Source of the DNA: Trueperaceae bacterium
GTDB taxonomy: Bacteria; Deinococcota; Deinococci; Deinococcales; Trueperaceae
Length of the DNA: 64,000 nt
Reading direction: 5' to 3'
NCBI GenBank assembly: GCA_965213925.1
Contig: OZ243927.1
Location: forward strand, 704,001-768,000
Shown here piece by piece: positions 22,596 through 45,869 of this stretch. Below the pieces are notes generated by a model that saw only the letters and a list, made by a program, of their open reading frames with translations, was not told where the DNA came from and did not search any database. A program made the position numbers and the translations under genes. Position 1 is the first letter of the stretch. The number at the start of each line of letters is the position of its first letter.

Positions 22596-22713
22596 AGCAA
22601 TGAGTTGAAAGCAATGAGCAATCCAGTCAAGCTGGTTACGCAGTCTCCCGAAGGGAACGAACGGTGAGTCTAAAGCCTTTCACTCATTGCTCATTGCTCG
22701 TTACTCATTGCTC
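22596..22713. repeat. AGCAATG heptamer hairpin carrying 21-nt micro-element copy B (22623-22664) with nested 21-nt insert (22636-22656)
   Basis: AGCAAT-CCAGTCAAGCTGG[TTACGCAGTCTCCCGAAGGGA]ACGAACGG-TGAG. Confidence 0.85.
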
Positions 22714-22714
22714 G

Positions 22715-23221
22715 TTAGTGCCAATCCTGCGGCGCACTCAGCTCGCCGCGCTTATTCCCTTTGATGAGGTCGACGGCGTGCGGCAAGATGTCGATAATGG
22801 CTTCCAAGGACTCCTGCGCCCCTTTGGGGCTACCTGGCAAGTTGACGATCAAGGTGCCACGTCGGACGCCCGCGACGCCGCGAGAGAGCGCCGCCTTGCG
22901 GTTTTGCTGCATTCCCGTAAGGCGCATCAGTTCGGGCAACCCTGGCACTTCGCGCTCGATGACCTCTAAGGTAGCGTCCGGCGTGCGGTCACGGAGCGCT
23001 AAGCCTGTGCCGCCTGTGGTCAACACGAGGTCGACGGCGTCCGACTCCGACCAGACGCGCAGTTTCGAGCGGATGACGGCTTGCTCGTCGGGGACGACTT
23101 GATAGTCCACTTCGGTGAAAGGTCCGGTGGCTAAAAGCTGGCGAATTTCCAAAGCGGAGGTGTCGGCGCGTTCGCCTTTTGCGCCCTTGTCGCTGGCGGT
23201 TAAAATAGCGGTTCGAATCAT
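22715..23221 (-). CDS. mog: Molybdopterin adenylyltransferase (MogA/MoaB family)
   Basis: TTGGTG, RDRTPDAT, LSRGVAG, NLPGSPKG; TATGCT 6 nt before ATG 23221. Confidence 0.92.
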   Translation of the reverse strand: MIRTAILTASDKGAKGERADTSALEIRQLLATGPFTEVDYQVVPDEQAVIRSKLRVWSESDAVDLVLTTGGTGLALRDRTPDATLEVIEREVPGLPELMRLTGMQQNRKAALSRGVAGVRRGTLIVNLPGSPKGAQESLEAIIDILPHAVDLIKGNKRGELSAPQDWH

Positions 23222-23340
23222 GGGCTTAGCATACAGGGGTCTTCGACTTTTTGTCATTGTAAAAAACCATATCGGGAAGCTCGAGTTTCACGCTGACATA
23301 GAGTGCAAGGATATATGCGCAGTACCGGGCTTTTAGTGAT

Positions 23341-23379
23341 TAGCTTTTAGGTTTTAGCTAACGGCTAAAAGCTAAGAGC
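23341..23379. repeat. GCTAA-heptamer hairpin
   Basis: TAGCTTTTAGGTTTTAGCTAACGGCTAAAAGCTAAGAGC. Confidence 0.6.
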
Positions 23380-23547
23380 CTTTGCGCTGAGGGATGCGTT
23401 CACAAAAACTCGAGTCAAGAGATGGACGTAGAATCTCCTCTTTTGTACGTCCCCGTCCGCAACGTTTTACTACACGCCCGTCAGCGCGGTAGGCTAGAGC
23501 GTTTGTTAAGGTCATCTTTACGCATCCAACGATAAGGAGAACGAACG

Positions 23548-24774
23548 TTGAACATTCACGAATATCAAGCCAAAGAGCTGATGAAGGCGCGCGGCATCGC
23601 CGTGCCTGAAGGACAGGTCGCCGCCTCCCCCAACGAAGCCGTATCAGCGGTGCGTCCCCTCATCGAAAACAGCGGCAATAAGGTTGTCGTGGTCAAGTCG
23701 CAGATTCATGCGGGCGGACGCGGCAAGGGTCGCTTCAAAGAGCACGAGGACGTGGCGGGCGTCAACGTGGTGACGGACGGGTTAGGCGGTGGCGTCAAGG
23801 CGGCCGAAGAGAAGGTGCGCGAGCTAGCCAAGAAGATGCTCGGCTCGACGCTCGTCACCGTGCAGACGGGCGAAGAGGGCAAAGAGGTCAGTAGGCTCTA
23901 TATCGAGCAGGGCATCGACATCGAGAAGGAACTCTACCTCTCTATCGTCTTGGACCGCGCTCACGCCCGCAACGTCGTGATGGTCTCGACGGAGGGCGGC
24001 ACCGAAATCGAAGAGGTCGCCGAGAAGACGCCCGAGAAGATTCAGCGCGTGGTGATTGACCCGGCGGTGGGGCTGACGGATTTTCAGGCGCGAGAGCTTG
24101 CCTTTGCCCTGGAGCTTTCCGGCGACGCCTTTAAGAACGGCGTCAAGTTCATGAAAGCGGTGACGAAGGCGGCTAGGGAATTAGACACCGACATGCTCGA
24201 GATCAACCCGCTCGTCGTCACCAAACAGGGTCAAGTGATGGCTTTAGACGGCAAGATGAGCTTCGACAGCAACGCGCTCTTCCGCCACAAGGACGTGTTG
24301 GAGATGCGCGACAAGTCCGAGGAGGACCCCGCTGAGGTCGAGGCGGACAAGTACGGCTTGTCCTTCATCAAACTAGACGGCAACATCGGCTGCTTGGTCA
24401 ACGGCGCAGGTTTAGCCATGTCCACGATGGACATCATCAAGCACGAGGGCGGCGAGCCCGCGAACTTCTTGGACGTAGGCGGCGGCGCGACCACGGAAAA
24501 CGTGACGGCGGCGTTTAAGATCATCACCCGTGACCCCAGCGTCAAAGGCATCTTCGTGAATATCTTCGGCGGCATCATGCGCTGCGACACGATTGCGAAC
24601 GGCGTCGTCGAGGCGGTTAAAGAGGTCGGTTTGGAGGTGCCTTTAGTCGTGCGTTTAGAAGGCACGAACGTCGAGCTAGGCAAAGAGATCATTCAAAACG
24701 CGGGCATCGAGGGTGTGGTCAGCGCCGACGATATGAAGGACGGCGCACGTAAGATTGTGGAGTTGGCGCAGTGA
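23548..24774 (+). CDS. sucC: Succinyl-CoA synthetase beta subunit
   Basis: [41 protein letters not shown] start after AGGAG. Confidence 0.97.
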
Positions 24775-25712
24775 GCATTTTAGTTGATAAAAATACGAAG
24801 GTCATTATTCAAGGTTTAGGCAACACGGGTAAATTTCATACGGACAAAGCAATCGCCTACGGTACGAACATGGTCGGCGCGGTTCACCCCGGTCGCGGTG
24901 GTGAAACGGAACGTTTCGAGGGCGAGACGGACCATAGCGGTGTAACCGGACGAGATGACACCTACAGCGTGGATGTGCCAATTTTCAATACCGTGAAGGA
25001 GGCGGTTGAGGAGACAGGCGCGAACGCTTCAGTCATCTACGTCCCCCCGCCCTTCGCCGCTGACGCTATCATGGAAGCCGCGAGCGCCGACATCCCACTT
25101 ATCATCACCATCACCGAGGGTATCCCCATCGAGGATATGGTTAAAGCGCGGCGCTACATGGAGGGCAGACCCTCGCGTCTGGTCGGTCCGAATTGCCCCG
25201 GCGTCATCACGCCGCATGAATGCAAAATTGGCATTATGCCTGGCTACATCCACAAGGGCGGCAAGATCGGCGTCGTGAGCCGCTCCGGGACGCTCACCTA
25301 TGAGGCGGTGCATCAGCTTACGAATAACGGTTTAGGACAGACGACGGCGGTGGGCATCGGCGGCGACCCTGTACACGGCACGAATTTCTTGGACGTGTTG
25401 AAGCTCTTCAACGACGACCCCGAGACCGAAGGCGTCATTATGATTGGCGAAATCGGCGGCACGGCGGAAGAGGAGGCGGCGGCGTGGGTCAAGGACAACA
25501 TGACCAAGCCCGTCGCGGGCTTTATCGCTGGGACGACCGCGCCGCCAGGCAAGCGCATGGGGCACGCGGGGGCGATTATCTCCGGGGGTAAGGGGACAGC
25601 AGAGGATAAGATCGCCGCTTTGGAAGACGCGGGTGTGGTGGTCGCGCCGACGCCTACGGACATGGGCTCGGCGATGATGGAGGCGATGGAGAAGGCGGGG
25701 GTAGAGGCTTAG
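24771..25712 (+). CDS. sucD: Succinyl-CoA synthetase alpha subunit
   Basis: [28 protein letters not shown]. Confidence 0.97.
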
Positions 25713-25806
25713 GGCTTTGGCTCGAGCCTCCAACTATCCCGAACATCAAGAGGTCAATGACGGTTTTTCAACGCGCCACCCAATTTTTCTCAAGTACATT
25801 AGATAA

Positions 25807-26854
25807 ATGAGCGACCTGCATATCTACGGGCTACTGCGTGACTGACATGCTAATAAGTAGCAATACTTGCTTAACGGTGCACTTAGTTTTATACGTTAAG
25901 AGGTGAATATGCCTATTAAGGAATATTTCTATATTTTTCTTAGCGGTATTTACGAGCAAGCCGCGCCGCGCCAAGCCGATCACGTGTGTTCACGCGCGGC
26001 TTGGCGGTGACGTGCTAGATGTGCAGCAGCTCGAGCCGCTTCTTAACTTCCAGGCGTTCGAGTCTCTTTTAGCGCGTCCTGGTCCCTGGACGATGGGCAT
26101 CGACGCGCCTTTCGCGCAGCCGCGGCGCTTGGTCGAAGTGCTGGGTTGGTCTCCTAGCTGGGACGACTATGTCGAAGAGGTCGCGGTGCTCGGCAAGGGA
26201 GGGTTTGAGCGGACCTTAAAGGACTATATCGCCGCCCAGCCTGGAGGCGACAAGCTCCACCGCCGCCGGGTGGACGAACGCGCGAAAGCCGTAAGCCCGA
26301 TGTCGCTCGCTTACGTTCCTGTAGGCAAGATGTTTTATGAGCTTGCGCCGCGGCTGCTGCGCACGAACCTCAACCTCCCGCTGCTCCGCGAAACGGCGGA
26401 GGATAGAACCGCTTTAGAGGTTTATCCCGCGCTCATCGTCAGGCAGCTTATCGGCAAGCGGAAGTATAAGAGCGACACCAAGCAGCAGCAGACCGAGGGG
26501 ATGAGGGAGGTGCGGCGCGAGGTGATCGAAACGCTGCGCTCGGGGGTGTACGGAATGAGGCTCGAGCTTGGCGGCGTGCTGAGCGCGTACCTCTTGGACG
26601 ACGCGACGGGGGACGCGCTCGACGCGACCCTCTGCGCGGTGCAAGCGGCGTGGGCAGCGAGGCAAGAGAATTACGGAATACCGGACGGAGTGGACAGGCT
26701 CGAGGGGTGGATTGTCGATCCGACACTTAAAAGCCCTTTACGTTTGGATCAGTTCAACGCAAGACTATCAGGAAAAAAGCGGCGTGAGCACCTAGAGGGC
26801 ACCTTTCTATTTGCTGAGTACGCTTTGCCTGACGCAACTCGCCATGTTTGTTGA
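25807..26854 (+). pseudogene. DUF429-like (predicted RNase H-fold nuclease) gene interrupted by an insertion
   Basis: MSDLHIYGL from ATG 25807 joins in frame to FTSKPRRAKPIT at 25949; downstream GIDAPF, LEVYPAL, DALDATLCA, EGWI. Confidence 0.75.
25834..25948. mobile_element. ~115-bp AT-rich TA-flanked insertion
   Basis: TA|CTGCGTGA...TTAGCGG|TA; removal restores the DUF429 frame; contains CTTGCTTAACGGTG, the reverse complement of the MITE left end. Confidence 0.6.
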
Positions 26855-26909
26855 CTGGGCTCGAGCTATACCCTACCGAACTACTCAAGATTTCTGTTAT
26901 AGTAAAACC

Positions 26910-28037
26910 GTGAAAGACGTCGTGCCCGCCGCTTCTCTTAGGTCCAGCACCGAACCTCTTGCAAGCTACCCTGCGGAACCTGCGGCGCTGACGCTTCACG
27001 CCCTCACCAAAAGCTATCAAGACCCCAAGCATCCGGCGGTCGCCGACTTCAACTTAGAGGTCAAGAAGGGCGAGATTTTGGCGCTCTTGGGGCCGTCAGG
27101 CTGCGGCAAAACGACGCTCTTGCGCCTTATCGCGGGCTTCGAAGTTCCGGACAAAGGTCACATCGAGGTCGCGGGCACCCAGGTCGCAGGACCGGACACG
27201 TGGCTCCAACCCGAGCGGCGCAACATCGGCTTCGTCTTTCAGGATTACGCGCTCTTTCCGCACCTAGACGTGCTGCAAAACGTCGCGTTCGGACTGGCGG
27301 GGCTACCCCGAAAGAAACGTATCGAGCGGGCGAAGGCGGTCTTGGACTTAGTCGGCCTCACCATCTTTAGCCGCCGCTATCCGCACCAGCTTTCGGGCGG
27401 TCAGCAGCAGCGTGTGGCGTTGGCGCGGGCGTTAGCGCCTGAGCCCGAGGTCATCCTTTTAGACGAGCCCTTTAGCAACCTAGACGCCGCCCTGCGCGGC
27501 TCGACGCGGCGCGAGGTGCGGCGCATCTTAGAAGCGTCCGGGGCGACGACGATCCTAGTCACCCACGATCAAGAGGAAGCGATGACCTTTGCCGACAGGC
27601 TCGCCGTGATGCGCGCGGGGCACCTTGAACAGGTGGGCGTGCCGGAGCGTGTCTACTTGCGCCCGCGCACGGCGTTCGTCGCCAACTTCTTAGGGACGAC
27701 CAACCTCATTCGCGGGACGGGTCGCGAACACGTCGCCGATACGCTTTTGGGCACGCTTCAAGTCGCGCAGCCCGTGATGGGGTCGGCGCTGCTCTCGTTG
27801 CGCCCCGAAGACCTGACCTTCGGCGAGAGGGGTGTGAGCGTGAGCGTCTTGAACCGCGACTTTAAGGGACACGACCTGACCTACACCTGCCGCGTGATCG
27901 CCGAGCCCGACCAGGTAGGGCAGACCTTTGTGGTGCAGACTGGACCGGAATGCACGGTGCAAGTTGGCGACGTCACGCGCCTCTCGAGCCGGGGCGTCGC
28001 GGTGCCCCTTGAAGGCAGCACGAGCAAGCCTCTCTGA
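26910..28037 (+). CDS. ABC transporter ATP-binding protein (Fe3+/FbpC-like)
   Basis: GPSGCGKT, PERRNIGFVFQDYALFPHL, LLDEPFSNLDA; TATAGT 6 nt before GTG 26910. Confidence 0.88.
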   Translation: MKDVVPAASLRSSTEPLASYPAEPAALTLHALTKSYQDPKHPAVADFNLEVKKGEILALLGPSGCGKTTLLRLIAGFEVPDKGHIEVAGTQVAGPDTWLQPERRNIGFVFQDYALFPHLDVLQNVAFGLAGLPRKKRIERAKAVLDLVGLTIFSRRYPHQLSGGQQQRVALARALAPEPEVILLDEPFSNLDAALRGSTRREVRRILEASGATTILVTHDQEEAMTFADRLAVMRAGHLEQVGVPERVYLRPRTAFVANFLGTTNLIRGTGREHVADTLLGTLQVAQPVMGSALLSLRPEDLTFGERGVSVSVLNRDFKGHDLTYTCRVIAEPDQVGQTFVVQTGPECTVQVGDVTRLSSRGVAVPLEGSTSKPL

Positions 28038-28298
28038 AAAATTAGTGAACGACGAGGAGAACCTCGGCTCGAGATTAAAACTATCTAAACGAATCGGGCG
28101 CGCGAAGTGCTTTGCTCGTAAGCAAGCCGCCACCACAAGGAGAAACCGATTCACTCTTTTGGTCACTGCGTGAAGGCACTGTCATCTTTTTATCAGATAG
28201 AAGAGGTTGTGCAGGCATAAGATATAGATAGTGAATTACGAATGTACATCCAGCACACTCCAAACACAACGCAACGCAACCTCAACAGGAGAATTGCT

Positions 28299-29063
28299 AT
28301 GTCACCATTAAGGTATTCCCTCAGCATGTTGTTAGGACTTTTGCTCGTGACCTTCAGCCTCGCCGCAAGTCAAAACGACCGAGATGGGGAAAATTTCTAC
28401 GACTCGGGCTCGGCCCAAGGTTGGACGCGCGAGTTCTCCGCAGGGCGCTCCTACAGCGTCAAAAGCGTGAGCGCACCGACGCGGCGTGGCGGCAGGGCGC
28501 TGCGCATGGAAACGCGCTACGGCGACCGAGAAAACAGCTACCATTCGGAGTTGGAGATGCACGGCGCGGGCGAGCCCGGCGAGCGCGCGTGGTACGGCTT
28601 TAGCACGTACGTCCCGACCTCTTGGGTTGATAGCGAGCAAACTGTGATCACCGCACAGTGGTGGAGCCATAGCCGCGCGAGCCCCCCGCTCGGCATCGAA
28701 ATCGAGGGCGACGAGTGGGTCGTCTTTCAGCGCTGGGACGAGGGGGACGAGGGTCTCTCTAAGCGCGCCGTAGGCACCGTGCGCAAAGGGGAATGGACCG
28801 ACTGGGTCGTCGAAGCGTATTGGTCGGACCGAAGGAACGGTTACGTAAAAGTCTGGCGTAACGGCGAGGTCGTTTACGAGCGCGAGGGGCCGAGCGTCTA
28901 TAGAAAAACGGAGCGTCTGCGCTTCAAGTTAGGGGTCTACGCCTGGCCCTGGAAGTACGACCGCCCCTCGCCCAGGAGGAGCAGCCCGCGCGTCATCTAT
29001 CACGACGAAATTCGCATCGGCGGCGAGAACTCGAGCTACAACGCCGTGAGCCCGAGAGACTAG
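28299..29063 (+). CDS. Secreted polysaccharide lyase-like protein
   Basis: Signal peptide; WYGFSTYVP, ITAQW, GEWTDW, GYVKVWRNG, FKLGVY, IYHDEIRIG. Confidence 0.72.
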   Translation: MSPLRYSLSMLLGLLLVTFSLAASQNDRDGENFYDSGSAQGWTREFSAGRSYSVKSVSAPTRRGGRALRMETRYGDRENSYHSELEMHGAGEPGERAWYGFSTYVPTSWVDSEQTVITAQWWSHSRASPPLGIEIEGDEWVVFQRWDEGDEGLSKRAVGTVRKGEWTDWVVEAYWSDRRNGYVKVWRNGEVVYEREGPSVYRKTERLRFKLGVYAWPWKYDRPSPRRSSPRVIYHDEIRIGGENSSYNAVSPRD

Positions 29064-29287
29064 CGCAAAACGAGCGGCAACCGCACTTCGCGTAAGGTGC
29101 CGGCCTCGTCAACGCAGAGTTCCCACACCGCAAGCTCGGGGCGCAATTCGTAGGCTCGCAGCTCGAGCTGCCGCCAAAACTCCGCGTCCCACAGGTGCCG
29201 ATGTTCGATGAGGTGCTCTAAAAAGCGCGGCGGCGAGGAGCCCCCGAGTGTGAAGTCGAGCACCTCGAGTAGATCACGTTTATTCAT
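29060..29287 (-). CDS. Small hypothetical protein
   Basis: 75-aa ORF with TATGAT box upstream. Confidence 0.55.
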   Translation of the reverse strand: MNKRDLLEVLDFTLGGSSPPRFLEHLIEHRHLWDAEFWRQLELRAYELRPELAVWELCVDEAGTLREVRLPLVLR

Positions 29288-29379
29288 CTTGCTGCATCAT
29301 ACCGCGCCGCCATCTCCAACGTTGTTTCGGAAGGCGCGGTAGGCAGAGTTCACCTGTTGAGTAGGAAACCGAAATTAAG

Positions 29380-29671
29380 TACATCGTTAAGCAAGGAATG
29401 CGGCACGGTTGTCACCCCGTTCACGAAGTACGGCGAAGCACGGTTGTCGAAGGGTCCCGTTTGGCTATGCCAAAACTCCGTAATTAGCTGTGCTAAAACT
29501 TCATAACTTGCAATCTCAGCTAGAGGAGAAGGCGAATGCAGAGATTCTTTCACGGAATCCTACGTTCATCGTAGGGCGGAGTCTATCCTACACTCGCCAT
29601 AGGGTGGAGTCTATCCTATAGCTCGCTGTAGGGTTCAGAATGACATACTTCATTTTTTAGCTGACAGTGTG
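29380..29671. mobile_element. MITE-like element copy 2
   Basis: TACATCGTTAAGCAA...TTAGCTGACAGTGTG; shares internal sequence with 22275-22552; three tandem hairpin units at 29553-29633. Confidence 0.65.
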
Positions 29672-29672
29672 C

Positions 29673-30476
29673 TCACTCCGCTTCCAACGACAACTCATAC
29701 GCCAAATTGCGAGGCGCACCAAAGGTCATCAAGGCTTTTCTGAGGTCGCGCCCGCTGAGCCCTTCGGCGGCGAGTTCCTTGGCTTTCGCTGCGAAGTCGG
29801 TTTCTTCGGGCTGAGGATTTGGCGACACGACCACGACGACTTCACCGCGCACCTCACCCTGGGAAAGCTGCGCCTGAACCTTTTGCAGGGTTCCCCGGTA
29901 GGTCGTCTCAAAGCGTTTGGAAAGCTCGCGGCTGACGCTGACTCGTCTCGTCTCACCACAGACCTCTCCTAAATCTCTAAGCGTGGCGAGCAACCTTTTG
30001 GGCGACTCGTAAAAAGCGAGCGTCACCTCGCTCTTGGCAATCTGAGAGAGAACCTCGCGCCGCGCCGAACCTTTGCGCGGCAGAAAGCCTAAAAAGGTGA
30101 AGCTTCCGAGCGGCAAGCCGGAAAGGACGAGCGCGGGAATTAGGGCGGTAGGACCGGGCAGAACCTCTACCGTATCGCCGCGCTTGAGTGCGATTTGCAA
30201 GAGGTCCGCGCCGGGGTCAGACAGTCCAGGTGTACCCGCGTCGGTGACAAAAGCGACACGCCCATGCTCGCTCAAGACGCCTTCGCCCCTTGTTGGAATC
30301 GTGTGCGCGTCTAGGCGCACGAGCGGCTTGTCTATCTCGAAGTGGTTGAGCAGCGTGCGGCTGTGGCGGGTGTCCTCGGCGGCGATGAGGTCAGCCTCGC
30401 GGAGCGCCCGGAGCGCCCGCAGCGTGATGTCCTCTAAGTTGCCAATGGGCGTAGGGACGAGGACGAGGTGGGCCAT
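29673..30476 (-). CDS. rsmI: 16S rRNA (cytidine1402-2'-O)-methyltransferase
   Basis: PTPIGNLEDITLRA, AAEDTR, DAGTPGLSDPG, YESPKR, RELSKRFE. Confidence 0.95.
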   Translation of the reverse strand: MAHLVLVPTPIGNLEDITLRALRALREADLIAAEDTRHSRTLLNHFEIDKPLVRLDAHTIPTRGEGVLSEHGRVAFVTDAGTPGLSDPGADLLQIALKRGDTVEVLPGPTALIPALVLSGLPLGSFTFLGFLPRKGSARREVLSQIAKSEVTLAFYESPKRLLATLRDLGEVCGETRRVSVSRELSKRFETTYRGTLQKVQAQLSQGEVRGEVVVVVSPNPQPEETDFAAKAKELAAEGLSGRDLRKALMTFGAPRNLAYELSLEAE

Positions 30477-30504
30477 AGCGGAGGGTGAGAAAATTCTGAA
30501 GAAG

Positions 30505-30699
30505 TTAGACGCCGACCATGTCGGGCGCGGTTCGTCCTCGGCTGCGGCGGCGGGCGTTGCGCTTTAGAGCAGCGCGCATCTTTGCCCGCAGCATCTCCAC
30601 CTCGCCTACAGTGACGGTAACTTCCGCGCCTTCGGGCAGCGTCACGCCCTCGGGTAAGATAATCACGCCTCTTTCTACCAGTCCTTTATAAGCTCGCAT
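30505..30699 (-). CDS. Small hypothetical protein (beta-rich N-terminus, basic tail)
   Basis: YKGLVERGVIILPEGVTLPEGAEVTVTV; GGAGG upstream; overlaps the upstream gene. Confidence 0.7.
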   Translation of the reverse strand: MRAYKGLVERGVIILPEGVTLPEGAEVTVTVGEVEMLRAKMRAALKRNARRRSRGRTAPDMVGV

Positions 30700-31117: not shown

Positions 31118-31186
31118 CTAAAATCCAGAGGTCAGTTTGACCGCGCTACTCGTGTTCATCTGGTCCACGACGCTACTTTCTTCCAT
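31118..31186 (-). CDS. Candidate leaderless upstream ORF (22 aa)
   Basis: TAAGAT 6 nt before ATG 31186; MEESSVVDQMNTSSAVKLTSGF, with TAG directly adjoining the next ATG. Confidence 0.4.
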   Translation of the reverse strand: MEESSVVDQMNTSSAVKLTSGF

Positions 31187-31258
31187 CCCCTCATCTTAAC
31201 GCGTTTTTGACCCCGTCATATCTTCATTTCGTCGGGTGCGTGCTAAAATAGCCGGAAT

Positions 31259-31987: not shown

Positions 31988-32078
31988 TTCCCGACAAGGA
32001 GTTGCAACCTACTTTTTCCGTTATCGGGTGCGCGTACGTAGAACCTCGAGCCGACCGTTTCACGCTGAACGTGCTCAG

Positions 32079-32098: not shown

Positions 32099-32127
32099 GA
32101 GATAAATTGCAGAGCGGAGGGCGTTTC

Positions 32128-32802: not shown

Positions 32803-32874
32803 AGCAATGAGCAACCCAGTCAAGCTGGTTACGCGGTCTCCCGAAGGGAACGAACGGCGAGCGACGAGCAACGA
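32803..32874. repeat. AGCAAYG heptamer array with 21-nt micro-element copy C (32816-32857) and nested insert (32829-32849)
   Basis: AGCAAC-CCAGTCAAGCTGG[TTACGCGGTCTCCCGAAGGGA]ACGAACGG-CGAG. Confidence 0.85.
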
Positions 32875-37483: not shown

Positions 37484-37899
37484 AGCTGATCGCCCGTCGG
37501 CAGTTCCAAGCGGAAGGTGCCCGAGGCGTCCTCTAAGATCAACCTTACGCGGTAGATTCCCTGACCTCTTTTAAGCATCTGCGAGAGGTTGACCTCTTCG
37601 CCCTCCCCGTAAATCTGTCTGAACAGGACGCGCTCAGGCTCGCCCGCTTTACCGGTCTGAAAGCTGCTCGGTTTTTCGTATGTTCCCTCGACGGTGAGCA
37701 GGCCGCGTCTGACTTCGCCGTTCAGCTCCAAGGGAAACCCGTCCGCCGAAGAGACGCGCCGCACGTAAGAGGCGTCCGTCGTCGTTTTGTAGGCAAAAAT
37801 AGGCGTCTGCGGCGGAATACCTACGTACCAGCCGCGCCACTCGCCCACGCCGAAGAAAACCACGGCGCAGAAGACGAGAAAGACGAGAAAGTCGCGCAT
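37480..37899 (-). CDS. Hypothetical membrane-anchored protein
   Basis: N-terminal TM then beta-rich domain; TATAGT 6 nt before ATG 37899. Confidence 0.7.
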   Translation of the reverse strand: MRDFLVFLVFCAVVFFGVGEWRGWYVGIPPQTPIFAYKTTTDASYVRRVSSADGFPLELNGEVRRGLLTVEGTYEKPSSFQTGKAGEPERVLFRQIYGEGEEVNLSQMLKRGQGIYRVRLILEDASGTFRLELPTGDQL

Positions 37900-38205
37900 A
37901 GCCCAACTATAGAGCGCTGCTCTAACGCACGCTCGTAAATTTTTCGCTAACGCTAGGGCGCGTAAACGAGGTGTGACGCGCGCCACGCCGCGGTGATAGA
38001 GGATGCATCTCATCTTCCTAAAACTTCGCTAAGCTCGCGCGCTAAACCCCACGTTAAGCTGCGTGTGAAGTATTACATAGAGGCGCAGCCAAGATACGCT
38101 ATACAAAGGAAAGACAGCCTCGAGACCCTGTCAAAACACCCTGTAGAAAGCTCTATATGCCGAAATTAGGTGAGACTCGCCCGAAGCGGCTCGAAAGGAA
38201 AAGAG

Positions 38206-39111
38206 ATGCGTAATATTACCCTTAGCCCTGGTACGTCAGCGAGCGATTCCTCGAACGGCAGCGTGAGCGAAGGTCGCCTTCCTGACTTCGTCATTATCGG
38301 CGCGATGAAGTGCGGCACGACGAGCCTCTACGACTACCTGAACTTGCACCCTGAAGTCTCGATGTCGCACCCTAAAGAACTCAACTTCTTCACCCAGCAT
38401 CAGCGCTGGAGGTTAGGGGTCGACTGGTACAAAGACCGTTTTGCCCCTAAAGATGAGGCGTGCGCGGCGCGTGTGAGGGGCGAAGCGTCGCCCAATTACA
38501 CCCGCCATCCGCTCTTTCCCGGCGTGCCCGAGCGGATGTGTCAGGTTGTGCCGAACGCTAAACTTATCTACTGCGTGCGCGACCCGGTTTCGCGCGCCAT
38601 GTCACACTACGTCCACGACTACTCGATAGGCGAGCAAGACAGACCCTTCGCCGAAGCGGTGCTCGACGAGAAAGAGGCGTACCTCTGGTGTAGTCGCTAC
38701 TTTCATCAGCTAGAGCAGTACTTAAAGGTTTACGATGCGTCGCAGATCAAGGTCGTCGTGTTGGAGGATATGAAAGAAAAGCCGTATGAGACGCTGGGTG
38801 AGGTGTTCGCGTTTTTGGGCGTGGACCCGAGCTACCGAGACGAGCGTTTTAGGTCGTCCTCCGGCACGATGCCGAGCGCGAAGGCGCGGCGGCGCAACTT
38901 CGTTAAGAGCTGGATGCGGCGCAACGGTGTGCGCGGTATGTATTGGCTCGAGCGCAACCTCCCGTGGGTTCTCGGCCGCCCCATCAAGCAGCCTGAAATC
39001 AACGAGGAACTCCACCGAAAGCTGCTCGGGGCGCTAGAGGACGACACCCAAGCCTTTCGCGCATTGACGGGGCTCGAGCTTCCGTGCTGGCGCTGGGTTC
39101 CGCCCCGGTGA
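38206..39111 (+). CDS. Sulfotransferase
   Basis: PDFVIIGAMKCGTTSL (5'-PSB), GEASPNY, RDPVSRAMSHY (3'-PB). Confidence 0.92.
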   Translation: MRNITLSPGTSASDSSNGSVSEGRLPDFVIIGAMKCGTTSLYDYLNLHPEVSMSHPKELNFFTQHQRWRLGVDWYKDRFAPKDEACAARVRGEASPNYTRHPLFPGVPERMCQVVPNAKLIYCVRDPVSRAMSHYVHDYSIGEQDRPFAEAVLDEKEAYLWCSRYFHQLEQYLKVYDASQIKVVVLEDMKEKPYETLGEVFAFLGVDPSYRDERFRSSSGTMPSAKARRRNFVKSWMRRNGVRGMYWLERNLPWVLGRPIKQPEINEELHRKLLGALEDDTQAFRALTGLELPCWRWVPPR

Positions 39112-39161
39112 GCGGGCGCTCGGATTTACTCAGGCTCGAGCGTACAGGTTATAAGGCGTCG

Positions 39162-39968
39162 CTAAAATTCGTCGGGGAAGTTGAACCCGCCCGCCGGACG
39201 TACAGGTTCCCTTTCGGAGTCTGAGCGGCTATCCTCTTGCCAGTCGCGACTTGCAAACGCGGCGACCTTTTCGCGGCGTTCGCGCTGCGCCTCTTGCGCT
39301 TGGCGCTCCTGCCAAGAGCGCTCGCGCAGCCTGCTGACGTGGGCGCTCGCGAGTTGCCGAAAAGGGGTCAGGGTTTGACCCAAGGGTGAGACTTTGTAGC
39401 GGGCATCCCAGGGTTCGAATTCGAAGCTCGCTTGCAGCGAGACGTAGCGTTTGCTGCTCCCCGAGAGGTAGAAGTAGAGCGTGAGCTTGCCCTCTTCGCC
39501 GTCGAACTGTGGCAGGGTCTCTTTAACCACCACCGACGCCTCGGGACCGACGATTTGCGCGGTTTCCAAGGTGAGCGGCACGTCCATGTCGGGCGTTTTT
39601 AGGGCGACCTCTAAGAGTTGAACGGGGTACATGTTGAGGTTGCTGACCGTCATGCGCAGGGCGTGACTGACAGGGCGCATAAGTGCGTTGCCGCGCCCCT
39701 TCTCGTCTTGTTCGACGTAGTCCTCGAGCACGCGGATTTCGCCTAGCGACACCAGCAGTTCGGGTTTGCTCGGCGCGGGCTCTTCAGGACGGCGGCGGCG
39801 CAGAAGCATCGAGAGAAGTAGAAGGATGAGGAGCCCGACAGCGACCATGCCCCACGTCAGCGGGTCTAAACGCTGCAAGGTAGACTGTGCCGTGGGCGAC
39901 AAGAGGGTCCAGAGGTTGGAGAAAAATGACGTGACGCTGTTCCACATCATCTCGAGCGTGCGTACCAT
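39162..39968 (-). CDS. Hypothetical membrane-anchored protein
   Basis: Single TM followed by RRRRP; TAAGCT 5 nt before ATG. Confidence 0.72.
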   Translation of the reverse strand: MVRTLEMMWNSVTSFFSNLWTLLSPTAQSTLQRLDPLTWGMVAVGLLILLLLSMLLRRRRPEEPAPSKPELLVSLGEIRVLEDYVEQDEKGRGNALMRPVSHALRMTVSNLNMYPVQLLEVALKTPDMDVPLTLETAQIVGPEASVVVKETLPQFDGEEGKLTLYFYLSGSSKRYVSLQASFEFEPWDARYKVSPLGQTLTPFRQLASAHVSRLRERSWQERQAQEAQRERREKVAAFASRDWQEDSRSDSEREPVRPAGGFNFPDEF

Positions 39969-40204
39969 ACCCTAGCTTATACCGCACAGAGGTGAAAGAG
40001 GCGTAAGTGCGGGGCAAATCCCCTCTTTTTTAAGGTTCTATGAAGTTTTTCACCGCCGTAGCAGGTATGATTTGGTCATAAACGCGCTCAGAAGACATCC
40101 TTTCGCACGTGCGTTCAGGGACGATGTCCGCGCGATGTGAACTCAGTAAGGTTGAAAGACCTTTTATTGATTCCAATTCTCAGCGAATGTATAGCCGAGC
40201 ATAT

Positions 40205-41200
40205 TCAACGCTCGAGTTTAGGCCACGTACCGGGCTTAGCGTGTTCGGGTCGCCAGTCGTGCGGAACGCGGTGCTCCGCCGCCGCGACTAAGCGGCGTTC
40301 TTTCGTCCCTTGCTCGACTCGCCAACGCGCCGCCTCGGAGCGCTGCATCTCCCTAAGCAAAGGTGCGATGAGGTCTTCGGGTGCTAACTCGAACACGTGC
40401 GCGCTGTAGTCTCTGAACCAGGGGCTCGAGCCCAGATACTCCGCCACCTCGCCCTCCAAAAGTCCGTCATTGAGCATCAGGGCGTAGGCGAAGATGCGCT
40501 TCATGCCGTGCCAAGCGACGCGTTCAGGCTCCCGCGTCCACCGCTCGTAGCGCTGCAGCGCCGCCCTAAGTGCCACGTTCGGCTCCGTCATCGGCGCGCC
40601 GTGCCCCGAGCACGCCCAGCGTGCCCGCAGCCGTAAAAGCCGCTCCAGAGAGTCCATCGCCCGCTCGACCGCGCCGACGCCCTCCCGGAACGGGTTGAGC
40701 CACGCCACGTCGTCACCGTGCACCGCGTCGCCGCAGATCAGGGTTTTTTCGCGCTCCTCGAAGAGTGAAATATGTCCGAGCGTATGCCCCGGTGTATGGA
40801 GCACACGCAGCATCACGCCGCCCGCTGAAATCTCGTCGCCATCGGTGAGAAACCGGTTCACCGTGTAAGGTTCGATGGGTTGACGCAGCCACCTCGCGCC
40901 GCACGCCTCTTTGTCGCGGTTATTCACAACGCCCGCTTCCCAGCGGTGCGCGGCGATGGGCAGGCTGTAGCGCGTCTGCAAATCGAAGTTGCCGCCCGCG
41001 TGGTCGCTGTGATAGTGCGTGTTTACGATCAGCGCTAGGCGTTCGGCAGGCACGCCCGCGCTGTAGAGCAGCGCCCGCGTCTGCGCGGCGTCGCTACCGA
41101 AACCCGTGTCGATGAGCACAGGGGTCTCGCCTCTGACCAAGACCATGTTCGCGCTCAGGAAGGTGCGCTCGAAGAGGTGGAGCCAGGCGGGTTGAGCCAT
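40205..41200 (-). CDS. Metallo-beta-lactamase fold hydrolase
   Basis: THYHSDHAGG, HTPGHT, GDA, GHG. Confidence 0.92.
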   Translation of the reverse strand: MAQPAWLHLFERTFLSANMVLVRGETPVLIDTGFGSDAAQTRALLYSAGVPAERLALIVNTHYHSDHAGGNFDLQTRYSLPIAAHRWEAGVVNNRDKEACGARWLRQPIEPYTVNRFLTDGDEISAGGVMLRVLHTPGHTLGHISLFEEREKTLICGDAVHGDDVAWLNPFREGVGAVERAMDSLERLLRLRARWACSGHGAPMTEPNVALRAALQRYERWTREPERVAWHGMKRIFAYALMLNDGLLEGEVAEYLGSSPWFRDYSAHVFELAPEDLIAPLLREMQRSEAARWRVEQGTKERRLVAAAEHRVPHDWRPEHAKPGTWPKLER

Positions 41201-41291
41201 GCCTTAGTGTAACGCCTTTAGCCGACGGGGGTTTTGGTGTCCGTCCTCGAGACCTGCTCTTTTCCACGCAGAGCTACTAATTTAGCCGCCC

Positions 41292-41837
41292 TCACGCTCG
41301 AGAGTTCATGTGAAGTAAAAGCCCGGTGAGCGCTAGACCGTCCGTTATCTCGCGCTTTCGTATCCGTTCCCTAAGCTCGTTTAGCCTAAACCACCGCACG
41401 CCCTGTATCTCGTTCTCGTCAATAGCGCCGCCTTTCTGCCCTGCTCTGCACCTCACGATGTGGACGGTCATGTTCGATATACCGTTGAGCGGGTTGTAGG
41501 TGTAGAGATGTTCGAAATCATGAGTGTCGTAACCCGTCTCTTCACGGACCTCCCTAACCGCCGCGTCTACAACAGTCTCGCCCTCTTCTACGCCACCTGC
41601 AGGCAACTCCCAGCGGCTCTGGGTCGGATAATGCGCGACGCGCTCCACAAGGATGTGTCCCTCGCTGTCTTCGACGATCACCGCGACTGCGCCGCGCTCA
41701 AAGTCTAAGAGGTGATAATGCTCAATGAGGTGTCCGTTAGGCATCGCCACCTTGTCCCGGTAAAGATTCACCCACGGACTTTCGTAGATGACGACTCTGC
41801 TAAGACGCTTCGGCAATGGTTCGCTAGAAGAACTCAT
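41292..41837 (-). CDS. NUDIX hydrolase (ADP-ribose pyrophosphatase-like)
   Basis: WELPAGGVEEGETVVDAAVREVREETGY. Confidence 0.9.
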   Translation of the reverse strand: MSSSSEPLPKRLSRVVIYESPWVNLYRDKVAMPNGHLIEHYHLLDFERGAVAVIVEDSEGHILVERVAHYPTQSRWELPAGGVEEGETVVDAAVREVREETGYDTHDFEHLYTYNPLNGISNMTVHIVRCRAGQKGGAIDENEIQGVRWFRLNELRERIRKREITDGLALTGLLLHMNSRA

Positions 41838-41853
41838 CTAAACGTTGCGGACC

Positions 41854-43203
41854 TTACCGCGCTTCGGCTAAGCGCTTCGCCTCTAACCAGTCGTGCACCG
41901 CGTCTACATTGTCGGGCGTGGTGACGATGAAGAGGTGGTCGCCGTGCTGGATTTTCGTCTCGCCGTCGGGGATAAACACGTCGTTTTTGCGCAGCACTGC
42001 CCCGATGAGGCTGTCGGGGGGTGCGCCTAGGTCGCGGATGCGCCCGGTTTCGCATTGGTAGGGATACGAGACCTCCATCACTTCGGCGCGGTCTTCGATG
42101 CTGGCTAAGTGGTCGACGGCGTCCGCCTCTAACCAGTTCAAGACCTCTTGTACGGCGGCGGTGCGCGGCGCTAAAGAGGTGTCGATGCCGACGCGCTCGA
42201 AGAGGCGGCGGTTGCGCGCCCTGGCGACGCGCGTAATGACTTTGGGGATGCCTAACTGCTTGCCCAAAAGCGAGGTGAGCAGGTTTTTGCTGTCGTCGTT
42301 CGTGACCGCGACGAGCACGTCGGCGTCCTCGACGCGCTCCTGCTCTAAAAGCTCTAAGTCGGTGCCGTCGCCGCGCAGTACGAGCACTTTGGGCAGAAAC
42401 CGCGCCAAATCCTCGCTGCGTTTTTCGTCCATTTCGATGACGGTGATGCGGGCTTGGCTCTCCTGGAGCTTCTCCGCCACCATAAAGCCGACGTTGCCGC
42501 CGCCGACGATGGTCACGTTCGGGCGGCGTTTGCGCGGCGCGAAGCGCGACTCGACCTCCCTCATGCTCGGCACGGTGCCCATAAAGATAACCTTATCGTC
42601 GGGGCAGAGCACCGTCTTACCCGAGGGAATAATAAAGGACTCGCCGCGAATCGAACCGACGATAAGCGCGCTTTTTGGTAGCTTGATGTCGCTCAAGGGT
42701 TTGCCTGTAAAGGGGTCTCCCTCTTCTAATTTGTACTCCAAAAGCTGAATCTTTTTGCCCGCGAAAAAGGTGCTGTCCACGGCTCTAGGCACCTGCACGA
42801 TGTCCACGATTTGATTCGCCAAGATGCGTTGGGGCCAGAGCATCCGGTCGATCATCAGCCCGACGCCCTCCATCATGCCCGCCTCGGCGAACGCCTCGAC
42901 GTAGCGCTTGCGCGTCACGAACGCCATCGTCTCCTTTGCGCCTAAGCCCTTCGCGGCTAAGCACGCGAGCACGTTGATGTCGTCATTCACCGTGCACGCG
43001 ATAAAGGCGTCCGCCTTATCCGCGCCTGCGACGCGCAGGTCTTTGGGGTCTGCGCCGTTACCCTGGATAAAACGCACGTCAATCGTTTCGAAGGCGTTCG
43101 AGCGCTCTCCATTTGTGTCAATTACCGTCACGCTATGCGCGTGTTGCAGCGCCTCTGCAACCTGCGAGCCGATTTCACCACCACCAACAAGCACGACATT
43201 CAT
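41854..43203 (-). CDS. trkA: Trk system K+ uptake protein TrkA
   Basis: Two RCK_N/RCK_C pairs (GGGEIG, GGGNVG), 449 aa. Confidence 0.92.
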   Translation of the reverse strand: MNVVLVGGGEIGSQVAEALQHAHSVTVIDTNGERSNAFETIDVRFIQGNGADPKDLRVAGADKADAFIACTVNDDINVLACLAAKGLGAKETMAFVTRKRYVEAFAEAGMMEGVGLMIDRMLWPQRILANQIVDIVQVPRAVDSTFFAGKKIQLLEYKLEEGDPFTGKPLSDIKLPKSALIVGSIRGESFIIPSGKTVLCPDDKVIFMGTVPSMREVESRFAPRKRRPNVTIVGGGNVGFMVAEKLQESQARITVIEMDEKRSEDLARFLPKVLVLRGDGTDLELLEQERVEDADVLVAVTNDDSKNLLTSLLGKQLGIPKVITRVARARNRRLFERVGIDTSLAPRTAAVQEVLNWLEADAVDHLASIEDRAEVMEVSYPYQCETGRIRDLGAPPDSLIGAVLRKNDVFIPDGETKIQHGDHLFIVTTPDNVDAVHDWLEAKRLAEAR

Positions 43204-43573
43204 GGGCTAAGCATACACGATGACGGGAGGGTCCGCCGGGTTATGTGCGTCATGCTGAGTAGATTCAAGAAGAAAGAATACAGAAGGCAGAATAGAAGCG
43301 CCTTCCCCTTCTTTATGTTGTATCTTCTCTACACTCGGCTGACTTTCGGAACATTACCCACTAAGAATTCAGAGTTTTACTCGAGGCCCGAAACTCCATC
43401 ACAACTGCGCTATAGAACCCGTACAATCTGCTCTAAGTAGCTGTTTGGCGAGGAAAATGTTACCGAGAGGTTGCTCGAGCTAAGGCTTGCGCGAACGTCT
43501 CCGAGCCGACAGGTGATAAGCTGCGAGCTGTGCGGCGCACTCCTTTAGACCACATCACTCGGCGGACCATTTC

Positions 43574-44917
43574 ATGAGCGGGCGTCCGACCCGCAGAACC
43601 CTCTCGCCTGCTACGGTTATCGCGCTTTCGTTCGGCATCACCGGGCTTATCGGTACGCTCCTCTTGTGGCTGCCCTGGTCGCACGCGCCGGGCGAAGATT
43701 TGACGCTCCTGGACGCGCTTTTTACCGCCTCGAGCGCGCTGTGTGTCACCGGGCTCATCGTCGTAGATACGGGCACCGCCTGGAGCCCCTTTGGTCAGAG
43801 CGTCATCATGATCTTGATTCAACTGGGCGGTTTGGGGCTCATCACCTTCGGCACGCTCTTCGCGCTGGCGCTGGGGCGGCGCGTCGGCTTTGGCGAAAGG
43901 ATGCGCGTCGCGGAGCAGGTCAAAGCTTTTCAGGTGGGCGGCGTGGTGCAGTTGGTACGCAACATCGTCCTGCTCTCGCTGGGCGTGGAATTCGTCGGCG
44001 CGCTGCTCCTCTACCCCGCGTTCGCCGCCGAGGAGGGCGCGGGCGCAGGCGCGTTCTACGCCCTCTTTCACAGCGTCAGCGCCTCGAACAACGCGGGCTT
44101 CGCCTTTTACGGCGACTCCTTGTCGCGCTTCGTCGGCGATCCGCTCGTAAACATCGTGATCACTGGGCTTTTTATTTTAGGTGGGCTCGGCTTCATCGTG
44201 CAGGTGAATTTGATCGGCTACGCGCGAAATAGGCGGCAGAACCGCCTGACGCTGCACACCAAGATCGTCCTAGTCGTGACGGCGGTGCTCTGCTTGCTGG
44301 GCTTTGGGGTGGTGGCGGCGCTCGAGTGGAACAACCCCGCCACGCTAGGCGAGTTGCCCTCAGGCGCAAAGCTTTGGGGCGCGTTCTTTCAGGGCGTGAC
44401 CCCACGCACGGCGGGGTTTAATACGGTCGACATCGGCTCGATGGAGAACCCCACCCTCATCTTCACCATGCTGCTGATGTTCATCGGCGGCTCGCCGGGC
44501 TCGACGGCGGGCGGCATCAAAACGGCGACGTTCTTCGTGCTCGCAGCGAGCGCCTGGAGCATGGTGCGTGGTTACGGCGAGCTGACGATCTTCGGGCGGC
44601 GCGTCAGCTCGCAGACTGCGATGAAAGCCGACACCGTCGTCCTGCTGAGCAGCGGCATCGTCATCGCGGCGCTTTTTCTTCTAAGCATCACCGAGAGCGT
44701 CGAACTCCTGCCCCTCGCCTTCGAGACGATGTCCGCCTTCGGCACGGTAGGGCTTTCGATGGGCTCGACGGGCGAGTTGAGTGTGGTCGGTCAGCTTGTC
44801 GTCATCGCGCTGATGTATCTGGGGCGCGTCGGTCCTCTGACGTTCGCGCTCGCGATCGTGCAAGAGCCGCGCGGAGGTGACATCAAGCATCCGGAGGAAG
44901 AGGTGCTTATCAGTTAG
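43574..44917 (+). CDS. ktrB: KtrB-type K+ uptake membrane protein
   Basis: SALCVTGL, SASNNAGF, PRTAGF, SAFGTVGLS pore motifs. Confidence 0.92.
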   Translation: MSGRPTRRTLSPATVIALSFGITGLIGTLLLWLPWSHAPGEDLTLLDALFTASSALCVTGLIVVDTGTAWSPFGQSVIMILIQLGGLGLITFGTLFALALGRRVGFGERMRVAEQVKAFQVGGVVQLVRNIVLLSLGVEFVGALLLYPAFAAEEGAGAGAFYALFHSVSASNNAGFAFYGDSLSRFVGDPLVNIVITGLFILGGLGFIVQVNLIGYARNRRQNRLTLHTKIVLVVTAVLCLLGFGVVAALEWNNPATLGELPSGAKLWGAFFQGVTPRTAGFNTVDIGSMENPTLIFTMLLMFIGGSPGSTAGGIKTATFFVLAASAWSMVRGYGELTIFGRRVSSQTAMKADTVVLLSSGIVIAALFLLSITESVELLPLAFETMSAFGTVGLSMGSTGELSVVGQLVVIALMYLGRVGPLTFALAIVQEPRGGDIKHPEEEVLIS

Positions 44918-44921
44918 AAGA

Positions 44922-45023
44922 AGCAATGAGTACCGAGCAACGAGCAATGAGTGAACCTCAGAAGCTTTTCACTTTCAACTCACCGTTCGTCCAGCTCGAC
45001 TGGATTGCTCGTTGCTCATTGCT
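44922..45023. repeat. AGCAAYG heptamer hairpin with 21-nt micro-element copy D (44983-45003, minus)
   Basis: Reverse strand AGCAAT-CCAGTCGAGCTGGACGAACGG-TGAG; no nested insert. Confidence 0.85.
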
Positions 45024-45075
45024 AAAATACTTCTGAATGTGAAGCATAAGGAAAGGTCTCGAGGTATCTACAATC

Positions 45076-45732
45076 ATGAAAACGAAACAGTTTCTCGTTA
45101 TCGGCGCGGGCCGCTTCGGCTCGGCGCTCGCGACTACTCTCTACGATTTAGGACACGAGGTCGTCGTTGTGGACTCCCGTGAAGACGCCGTCGAGACGAT
45201 CATGAACGGTGTGACGCACGCCGCTATCTTGGACGCGACGGATGAAGAGGCGCTTACGAAGCTCGGCTTAGACACCTTTGACCAGGTCATCGTCGCTATA
45301 GGCAACAACTTTGAAGCGAACATCCTCGCCACCGTCGCCGCGAAGAATCAGGGCGCGAAGCGCGTCGTGAGCAAGGCGACGAGCAATATGGCTGCGAAGG
45401 TCCTTTCGCAAGTCGGCGCAGACGAGGTCATTCGCCCGGAGCACGATATGGGCGTGCGGCTCGCCAAGCAGCTCGCCACACCGGGCATCGTGGACGCCTT
45501 TAACTTAGGCGATGACCATGAAGTTATCGAGTTCGAAGCGCAGAGCAAGCTCTGCGGACGCTTAGATCAACTCAAGCTCACCAACCGCTTCGGCGTGCAA
45601 GTCGTCGCGGTCAACCGGGACGGTAAGTTGGAGGTGAGCCCACGGGCTGACTTTGAAATTCGCCCGAAAGACCGCGTTGTGCTTATTGGCGAGTCCGATT
45701 CTATTGAGAGCTTGCGCAACTATCTCGAGTAA
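45076..45732 (+). CDS. ktrA: KtrA-type K+ uptake regulatory subunit
   Basis: GAGRFG, single RCK_N plus RCK_C, PEHDMG. Confidence 0.9.
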   Translation: MKTKQFLVIGAGRFGSALATTLYDLGHEVVVVDSREDAVETIMNGVTHAAILDATDEEALTKLGLDTFDQVIVAIGNNFEANILATVAAKNQGAKRVVSKATSNMAAKVLSQVGADEVIRPEHDMGVRLAKQLATPGIVDAFNLGDDHEVIEFEAQSKLCGRLDQLKLTNRFGVQVVAVNRDGKLEVSPRADFEIRPKDRVVLIGESDSIESLRNYLE

Positions 45733-45736
45733 GGCA

Positions 45737-45869
45737 GCAATGAGGAACGAGCAATGAGTGAAAATCTTTAGACTCATTGCTCACCGTTCGTTCCTTTCGC
45801 ATTCGCGAAAACTACGTAAGCGGAAGCTAAAGCCACCAGCTTGACTGGATTGCTTTCAACTCATTGCTT
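45737..45869. repeat. AGCAATG heptamer hairpin with micro-element copy E (45784-45848, minus) and 44-nt nested insert (45792-45835)
   Basis: Reverse strand AGCAAT-CCAGTCAAGCTGG[44 nt]ACGAACGG-TGAG. Confidence 0.85.

Follow-up and report, generated by a model that had tools for sequence, protein, structure and literature searches.

The window analysed here, a 64,000-nt stretch of the genome of a Trueperaceae bacterium (contig OZ243927.1, positions 704,001 to 768,000), contains hairpins built of tandem heptamer repeats that host a 22-nt insert, hereafter the outer element, and some copies of this element are themselves interrupted by smaller hairpin-forming modules. These modules are probably mobile, being inserted in one orientation and at exact positions, including one inside another. 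It is likewise probable that the window is a part of a genus-wide set of modular repeats of 19-24 nt, each consisting of a conserved 5' head followed by a hairpin of its own. In the succession of events that we propose, a heptamer-repeat hairpin would receive the 22-nt outer element at GCAA^TGAG (the caret marks the insertion point), the outer element would receive a module of 19-24 nt at CTGG^ACGA, and this module might accommodate a 24-mer with a TTAC head in its own loop.

A preliminary description of the window identified five copies of the outer element, denoted A to E, and reported a 21-nt insert between CTGG and ACGAACGG in copies B and C. Indeed, the window contains exactly two copies of this inner 21-mer (TTACGCRGTCTCCCGAAGGGA; Table 1), both flanked by CCAGTCAAGCTGG on the 5' side and ACGAACGG on the 3' side, and none of 100 dinucleotide shuffles yielded a match. 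The 13-mer half of the outer element, with up to two mismatches allowed, is found 5 times in the window compared to 1.40 times expected, a count that was reached in 1 of 100 shuffles. The outer element itself had been taken to be 21 nt long; the net insertion is 22 nt, that is, 21 nt and one ambiguous T. Copies A and D are empty, as reported, and copy A is a variant with a different tail. Copies B, D and E each reside in one arm of a long heptamer hairpin of the GCAATGA type. In the predicted folds, each module forms its own side hairpin and the host stem remains paired; in the host of copy B, for example, the heptamer arms pair with each other and the inserts protrude as side hairpins.

The most elaborate case in the window is copy E. 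Its insert at the same point is exactly 44 nt long, as described, but it is not a longer homologue of the inner 21-mer with 16 extra 5' bases. Rather, it consists of a separate 20-mer (TGGCTTTAGCTTCCGC followed by AGGA) that is split by a nested TTAC-type 24-mer. The 20-mer is present uninterrupted six times at the CTGG^ site of other outer elements in the genome, and the census of filled and empty sites described below recovers both the 44-nt insert and the 24-nt insert nested within it. Thus, copy E is a heptamer hairpin that contains an outer element, which contains the 20-mer, which contains the 24-mer. The tiers postulated previously, at least three in number, are therefore real, and there are four of them in the window; at least five families occupy the site, and the supposed second 21-mer represents just one of them.

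The whole genome assembly of the source organism (hereafter G000; 4.75 Mb in 6 contigs, 58% G+C, 96.9% complete) was searched for pairs of 12-nt flanks (12+12) that adjoin each other at one locus and are separated by 12-100 nt at another; the output of this census includes many chance pairs from GC-rich coding DNA. The 13-mer CCAGTCRAGCTGG of the outer element is present in 64 copies, compared to 5 for the reversed control, and these 64 elements are divided between 30 empty ones and 34 that are filled at CTGG^ (30 with parsed inserts and 4 complex ones whose first nucleotides are a known inner family's head). At least five unrelated families of 19-24 nt contribute the fills, namely, TTACGCRGT followed by a hairpin (19-21 nt), the 20-mer, TTATGTAATCTTGCGAAGCAA, TACACGCTAGTTCTTGYGAAGCAA and TGTACGTAAGTCCTCACGTAGTGA, and every one of them is inserted in the same orientation and ends with a small hairpin followed by A. 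The boundaries of the inner modules involve 0 nt of ambiguity and 0 nt of target duplication, and the duplication associated with the outer element is at most 1 nt. A second site of the outer element, ACGA^ACGG, takes TTAC-type 24-mers. At C1:2054307, the nesting is reciprocal, with an outer element located within an inner element of the TTATGTAAT type that is itself located within an outer element. In contig C1, 26 of the 84 two-armed heptamer hairpins carry the outer element.

The insert in copies B and C belongs to a larger family that is defined by the head TTACNNAGT followed by a hairpin with a covarying stem. The head alone occurs 376 times in the genome (195 for the reversed control), and among the copies, which were chosen by the head alone, 77 possess a perfect 6-bp stem, compared to 5.0 expected from shuffles. 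At stem position 4, the pair is GC in 32 copies, CG in 32, AT in 6 and TA in 6, and the loops vary freely. These 77 copies are found in 42 distinct contexts (5+5 nt), and in 36 of these (70 copies) the insert lies immediately 5' of A(C/G)G. The contexts include a repeat that resembles MITEs (miniature transposable elements with inverted repeats), a second heptamer family (AGGACTG), hairpin loops, the outer element, the 20-mer and other TTAC units. The inner 21-mer itself, with up to three substitutions, has nine full-length matches in the genome, five of which occupy the CTGG^...^ACG position of the outer element. The preliminary description had allowed that this sequence might never occur in another context; the remaining four matches are all outside the outer element. 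A second outer type (CCCTTTCGGGG^ACGAACGG) accounts for three of them, one in the corresponding position and two in its loop, and the fourth is inside another TTAC unit. The general site-specific process on tiny hairpins that had been suggested is borne out with respect to the reuse of one fixed site, but not with respect to hairpin loops, which are not overrepresented among the contexts of the TTAC family (10 of 54, compared to 735 of 5000 control G^A(C/G)G sites).

Comparison of orthologous loci shows changes in occupancy within the genus. Three near-complete genomes, with 81-93% identity in the compared genes, represent the genus: G000 and the sister species G001 and G002. In two genes, the pairwise identity is 89-93% between G000 and G001, 83% between G000 and G002, and 81-82% between G001 and G002, which makes G002 the outgroup. 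At each of the eight comparable loci, at least two of the three species have different occupancies (Table 1); the loci C1:663111 and C1:4506590/4507454 were left out of the comparison because other repeat families are present there in the sister genomes. Neither G001 nor the outgroup G002 is filled at locus E or at C1:664270, so that, by parsimony, the inserts were gained in the G000 lineage. Locus C is a clean case of a change confined to the inner module: the inner 21 nt are all that separate the site from its G002 orthologue. The filled elements of G000 and G002 at C1:3145848 have stems that are one compensatory pair apart. In three orthologous hairpins (D, B and C1:3145848), the outer element of G001 is located in the arm opposite to the one that is occupied in G000. 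This placement is not accounted for by a mere flip of the hairpin, given that the loop of D retains its orientation.

These comparisons bear on the possibility, already raised in the preliminary description, that the long forms are ancestral and that the empty copies (A, D and others) were produced by precise deletion from decaying elements. Slippage can remove segments that are bounded by hairpins, and the change at site C may have run in either direction. Nevertheless, this scenario is highly improbable given the uninterrupted heptamer hairpins in the sister species and the outgroup at E and C1:664270, and given that removal of inserts restores the heptamer register and, in the transposase gene discussed next, the reading frame.

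The genome contains four copies of a 995-nt insertion sequence (IS) of the IS982-like type that are 99.8-100% identical, and each carries the outer element. The 22-nt insert interrupts the transposase gene such that the DDE_Tnp_1_3 profile is broken between positions 133 and 134 and the reading frame is shifted; when the insert is removed, both the frame and the Pfam profile are restored. This IS was sought in G001 and G002 and was not found, which suggests recent activity of the outer element and is a further argument against ancestral long forms. The same insertions are pertinent to the idea that the modules are parts of functional RNAs or terminators that diversified in place and are not mobile. 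Many copies are, indeed, located just downstream of genes and their hairpin stems covary, but this explanation is scarcely credible: modules are found inside transposase genes that they disrupt, orthologous intergenic spacers differ by exact whole units, and a search of the window against Rfam gave no match at the gathering score. For annotation, the implication is that the modules reshape the 3' hairpins of genes and inactivate IS transposases.

Two other regions of G000 deserve mention in this connection. Two outer elements, one of them with the 20-mer, lie approximately 1 kb apart at C1:1241293 and C1:1242271, in a sequence that, by eye, resembles the two open reading frames (ORFs) of an IS3-type element. 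At C1:2645669-2646930, the ORF of an IS110-family transposase is apparently broken near its 3' end by a short hairpin-bearing insert, and an outer-like sequence with a variant tail is located about 120 nt downstream.

We surveyed 41 genomes, namely, G000, G001, G002 and 38 other relatives. The outer 13-mer is present in 64, 44 and 65 copies in G000, G001 and G002, respectively, and in 0-1 copies in each of the other 38 (one match in 12 of them, similar to the controls). The TTAC-24 pattern is found 64, 61 and 68 times in the three genomes and once in total in the other 38, with 0 matches in the controls. Heptamer arrays number 41, 68 and 46 in the three genomes and 4 in G003, and the other 37 relatives have none. 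Among the genomes searched, therefore, the outer element, the TTAC family and the heptamer hairpins are abundant in a single genus. The KtrA-like protein of G000 has its nearest relatives in Trueperaceae genomes, with 73% identity at best. In metagenome contigs, there were 0 matches for the outer element in a heptamer context and five stretches that match one TTAC-24 subtype, a number that is near chance by a rough estimate; four of the five resemble an ordinary hairpin. The empty outer element is matched exactly over 21 nt at positions 201-221 of two IMG/VR records with one and the same sequence (L107 and L108), in low-GC viral DNA and without the usual T flanks; this match is probably due to chance.

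The nested inserts might also be explained without any element-specific enzyme if a nested insertion arose once and was then passed to other copies of the host element by recombination between dispersed repeats or by gene conversion over short tracts. Recombinational repair is known to be efficient in Deinococcota. As intact units, four of the five inner families (the 20-mer, the TTATGTAAT type and two 24-mers) are nearly confined to CTGG-type hosts, at CTGG^ACG, and the entire composite of outer element, 20-mer and 24-mer recurs in four copies in G000 with small differences. We nevertheless consider such templated conversion unlikely. The homology on offer amounts to merely 13 + 8 nt; the same inner families occupy both the A and the G subtypes of the outer element as well as hosts in which the outer flanks are unrelated; three other kinds of hosts contain relatives of the inner 21-mer; and the TTAC-24 family is dispersed over 42-54 unrelated contexts with only A(C/G)G in common. 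Conversion also leaves unexplained the first insertions and the entry of the 22-nt element into an IS that was not found in the sister species. The recurrence of the composite in G000, together with the presence of the same 24-mer sequence next to outer elements in G002, suggests that nested structures also spread as whole units, and copy E probably arrived already assembled.

Another explanation that dispenses with a dedicated enzyme is that stalled or cut hairpins are patched with filler DNA through microhomology-mediated template switching from other repeats. The hosts are strong hairpins and the inserts lack target duplications, both as this scenario would have it, but we regard it as improbable: dozens of copies have boundaries that agree to the single base, the inserts are whole units in a single orientation throughout, and the conserved head and covarying stem indicate recognition of a defined module. 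The absence of hairpin-loop enrichment for the TTAC family also argues against it.

Returning to mobility, we tentatively favour, as its mechanism, a trans-acting structure-specific nuclease or transposase that would read the head and the hairpin in single-stranded DNA. Such an enzyme would cut and join without target duplication, following the logic of IS200/IS605, RAYT-REP and Ssn-NTS but not using their known enzymes. The exact ends, the lack of duplication, the single orientation at a short asymmetric target and the conserved, unpaired head followed by a hairpin that maintains its pairing but not its sequence are hallmarks of proteins that read hairpins in single-stranded DNA, such as IS200/IS605 TnpA, RAYT and the Ssn nucleases. 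A broader and more doubtful version of this proposal is that unrecognised machinery, which makes no use of Y1/HUH, TnpB or a dedicated Ssn, moves head-plus-hairpin modules of 19-24 nt as single strands, belongs to the same class as that behind the small dispersed repeats of cyanobacteria, and is still active. If this is the case, the machinery inserts the modules beside targets of 3-4 nt in a single orientation and with no duplication, strikes IS elements that were acquired after the species split, and moves Russian-doll composites as units.

Several observations weigh against this interpretation. The mover was not found in the enzyme families that we surveyed. No match to Y1_Tnp (PF01797) was obtained in G000 or G002, and G001 has a single weak one; TnpB (PF07282) likewise has 0 matches in G000 and G002. 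Transposases of the IS110 family are present in all three genomes, yet also in other genera, and were rejected as the mover. The UPF0213-like GIY-YIG protein, the only common small GIY-YIG of the genus, was rejected as well, because its gene order is conserved and the gene is not bracketed by cognate repeats; in G000, this small protein matches the UPF0213 structures PDB 1zg2 and 1ywl. Across the 41 genomes, none of Y1_Tnp, TnpB, IS110 and GIY-YIG has a distribution that comprises the three genomes of the genus and no others. Neither a de novo event nor an excised form nor a population polymorphism was seen. In sequencing runs, the matches listed were two, both in Logan contigs of a mixed sample and none in RNA, and four runs yielded only fragmentary contigs and repeat-derived joints. 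The difference at site C is either a gain in G000 or a loss in G002. The composites are present in multiple copies, so that independent nesting events are fewer than nested copies, and the near confinement of four inner families to CTGG-type hosts fits conversion, too. Finally, the cumulative GC skew of G000 is weak and irregular and, therefore, unsuited to gauging a replication-strand bias, and the octamer pair GACCTCTT/AAGAGGTC, with approximately 1500 copies of each, is asymmetric but shows no strand polarity along the chromosome.

Three observations were made in the course of these searches. The sole Y1_Tnp-like match of the genus (G001 C4:3786234-3786551, E 5e-14) lies in an unusual setting, a 1322-aa open frame. 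One gene, which we take to be Ssn-like on account of its sequence features, was seen in G002 alone. The commonest octamer of G000 is GCTCGAGC, with 1751 copies.

Table 1. Nested repeat features of the window, states of the orthologous loci, and IS982-like copies carrying the outer element
Feature	Position	Strand	Remarks
Copy A, empty variant outer element	4614..4634	+	tail ATGAACGA; outside any heptamer hairpin
Heptamer hairpin without insert (empty target)	13686..13752	+	-25.3 kcal/mol, z -10; compared for G000 and G001: G000 empty; G001 second outer type with TTAC 24-mer
Heptamer-repeat hairpin (GCAATGA-type arms), host of copy B	22596..22718	+	tandem repeats; fold -27.5 kcal/mol, z -5.6
Copy B, filled outer 22-nt element, left arm	22622..22664	+	TCCAGTCAAGCTGG + ACGAACGG; 43-nt composite, 1 nt ambiguity
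Inner 21-mer in copy B	22636..22656	+	TTACGCAGTCTCCCGAAGGGA; TTAC-head family, hairpin TCCC-GAA-GGGA; boundary ambiguity 0 nt
Copy C, filled outer element	32816..32857	+	orthologous outer element empty in G002
Inner 21-mer in copy C	32829..32849	+	TTACGCGGTCTCCCGAAGGGA; exact match and filled/empty census
Heptamer hairpin, host of copy D	44918..45024	-	between TrkH-like and KtrA/TrkA-like genes
Copy D, empty outer element, right arm	44983..45004 (two halves contiguous, 44983-45003)	-	22-nt net insertion
Heptamer hairpin, host of copy E	45729..45872	-	-32.2 kcal/mol, z -5.95; insert-free in G001 and G002
Copy E, outer element with 44-nt composite insert	45784..45849 (halves 45784-45848)	-	census and parse
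44-nt insert of copy E	45792..45835	-	20-mer TGGCTTTAGCTTCCGC + AGGA (45792-45795 and 45820-45835) split by 24-mer
Fourth tier, TTAC-family 24-mer in loop of 20-mer	45796..45819	-	TTACGTAGTTTTCGCGAATGCGAA; nested filled/empty pair
Locus B, orthologues			G000 filled outer, left arm; G001 empty variant outer, right arm; G002 56-nt spacer (467 nt in G000)
Locus C, orthologues			G000 outer + inner 21-mer; G001 neither; G002 empty outer in the same place (CCAGTCTAGCTGG + ACGAACGG)
Locus D, orthologues			G000 empty outer, right arm; G001 right arm empty, outer + 20-mer in left arm; G002 hairpin absent
Locus E, orthologues			G000 three nested inserts; G001 and G002 uninterrupted hairpin
Orthologous locus	C1:664270		G000 outer + inner + further 22-mer; G001 and G002 arm empty
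Orthologous locus	C1:3145848		G000 outer + inner, stem TCTC/GAGA; G001 arm empty, complex nest in other arm; G002 outer + inner, stem TCCC/GGGA
Orthologous locus	C1:3147162		G000 three tiers; G001 empty; G002 gene order broken
IS982-like copy in G000	C1:3607411-3608405		
IS982-like copy in G000	C1:2309091-2310085		
IS982-like copy in G000	C1:2404920-2405914		
IS982-like copy in G000	C1:2431680-2432674		

Other repeats in the window are related to these modules. Upstream of copy B, at 22300-22560, there is a MITE-like composite repeat that contains two adjoining TTAC units (22383-22429, minus strand) and a 26-nt module (22474-22499); the MITE-like block of approximately 400 nt upstream of copy B is absent from the orthologous spacers of G001 and G002. 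The second heptamer-hairpin family, with AGGACTG and CAGTCCT arms, is represented at 62300-62340 and 63700-63755, and elsewhere in the genome such arrays contain TTAC-type 24-mers. At 29572-29633, a 28-nt unit is repeated 2.2 times and contains a 29-nt module (TAGGATAGACTCCGCCC...), which the census also finds as an insert elsewhere in the genome.

Of the systems described so far, the nearest is that of the small dispersed repeats (SDR1-8) of Nostoc punctiforme and its relatives, to which the present sequences are compared by description only. Elhai et al. 2008 reportedly described the Nostoc SDRs as repeats nested in tandem heptamers, with hairpins that undergo compensatory changes. Like the SDRs (about 21-27 nt), the Trueperaceae modules are short, with lengths of 19, 20, 21, 22 and 24 nt and tens of copies each; they are nested in each other and in tandem heptamers (copy E and C1:2054307); they are inserted precisely at a fixed position of a motif, as in the 34 outer elements filled at CTGG^; their hairpins are backed by compensatory changes, as attested by the excess of perfect stems; related genomes differ by their presence or absence; and no mover has been named for either. 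The targets are different, namely, GCAA^TGAG, CTGG^ACGA and N^A(C/G)G here, whereas SDR5 is located between the 3rd and 4th nucleotides of HIP1, according to the available text of one report (PMC4390886). The host is different, too: it belongs to Deinococcota and not to Nostocaceae, and a cyanobacterial origin was ruled out by the lack of a photosynthetic reaction-centre gene (Photo_RC) and by the mere 93 HIP1 sites in the genome. In the excerpted part of another study, no SDR-like repeats are recorded outside Nostocaceae among HIP1-rich cyanobacteria (PMC5861425), and the excerpts at hand from the literature citing the Nostoc SDR work name no mover. Our search of the literature found no description of such repeats in Truepera or Deinococcota, and none of the top papers that it returned for repeats in Truepera mentions that genus.

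The modules further resemble REP and REPIN sequences, as characterised in the consulted sections of two papers (PMC3116915, PMC3733652), in that a short unpaired head is followed by a hairpin, the variable stems are compensated, and the copies are mostly extragenic with occasional intragenic ones. Unlike REP and REPIN, however, the head is not GTAG but TTACNNAGT, or, when the outer element is read on the opposite strand, CCGTTCGT; Y1_Tnp was not found in G000 and G002; and the units are singlets nested in other units rather than inverted dimers. A particular variety, the CGTC-tagged REPs, seemingly lacks a dedicated transposase of its own, and its members have a stem of 8-9 bp that begins with two A/T positions, a loop of 4-5 nt and a CCA-like tail (PMC3733652, in the part seen). 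On the other strand, the outer element similarly reads ...CGTC, directly followed by a hairpin and a short tail, but its CCAG/CTGG stem of 4-5 bp does not start with A/T as in CGTC REPs and SRMs. According to the sections consulted of a report on Ssn, these GIY-YIG single-strand nucleases cut NTS/SRM repeats, and small proteins can recognise a tag and a hairpin in single-stranded DNA (Chenal et al. 2025, PMC11893778). By inspection, the base after CGTC in the outer element is C, whereas the SRM consensus calls for A or T, and no Ssn-type gene is common to the three genomes.

Among transposons, the IS200/IS605 family inserts without target duplication, in one orientation and at a short specific target, by recognition of hairpins and not of inverted ends, and requires TnpA (Y1) and a hairpin at each end. 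The modules are also inserted without duplication, in one orientation and by a short specific target, but each has a single hairpin, and neither TnpA nor TnpB was found in G000 and G002. Unlike MITEs, the modules lack terminal inverted repeats and produce target duplications of 0 nt (inner) or at most 1 nt (outer). Within the same phylum, Deinococcus radiodurans possesses small noncoding repeats (SNRs), 295 in number and of at least nine types, which have an unusual mosaic structure and are absent from a close relative, as stated in the available part of their description (PMC1978522); the likeness is by description only.

Compared to these systems, the modules of the Trueperaceae genus are of one kind with the Nostoc SDRs, namely, a deeper-nested example of a rare, unexplained kind of mobile DNA, in a further phylum, and their behaviour is that of mobile DNA at the lower end of the known size range. 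An independent system in a second phylum, with empty, filled and doubly filled alleles at orthologous sites and a defined target for each module, makes the question of what moves a 21-nt element directly testable in this genus.

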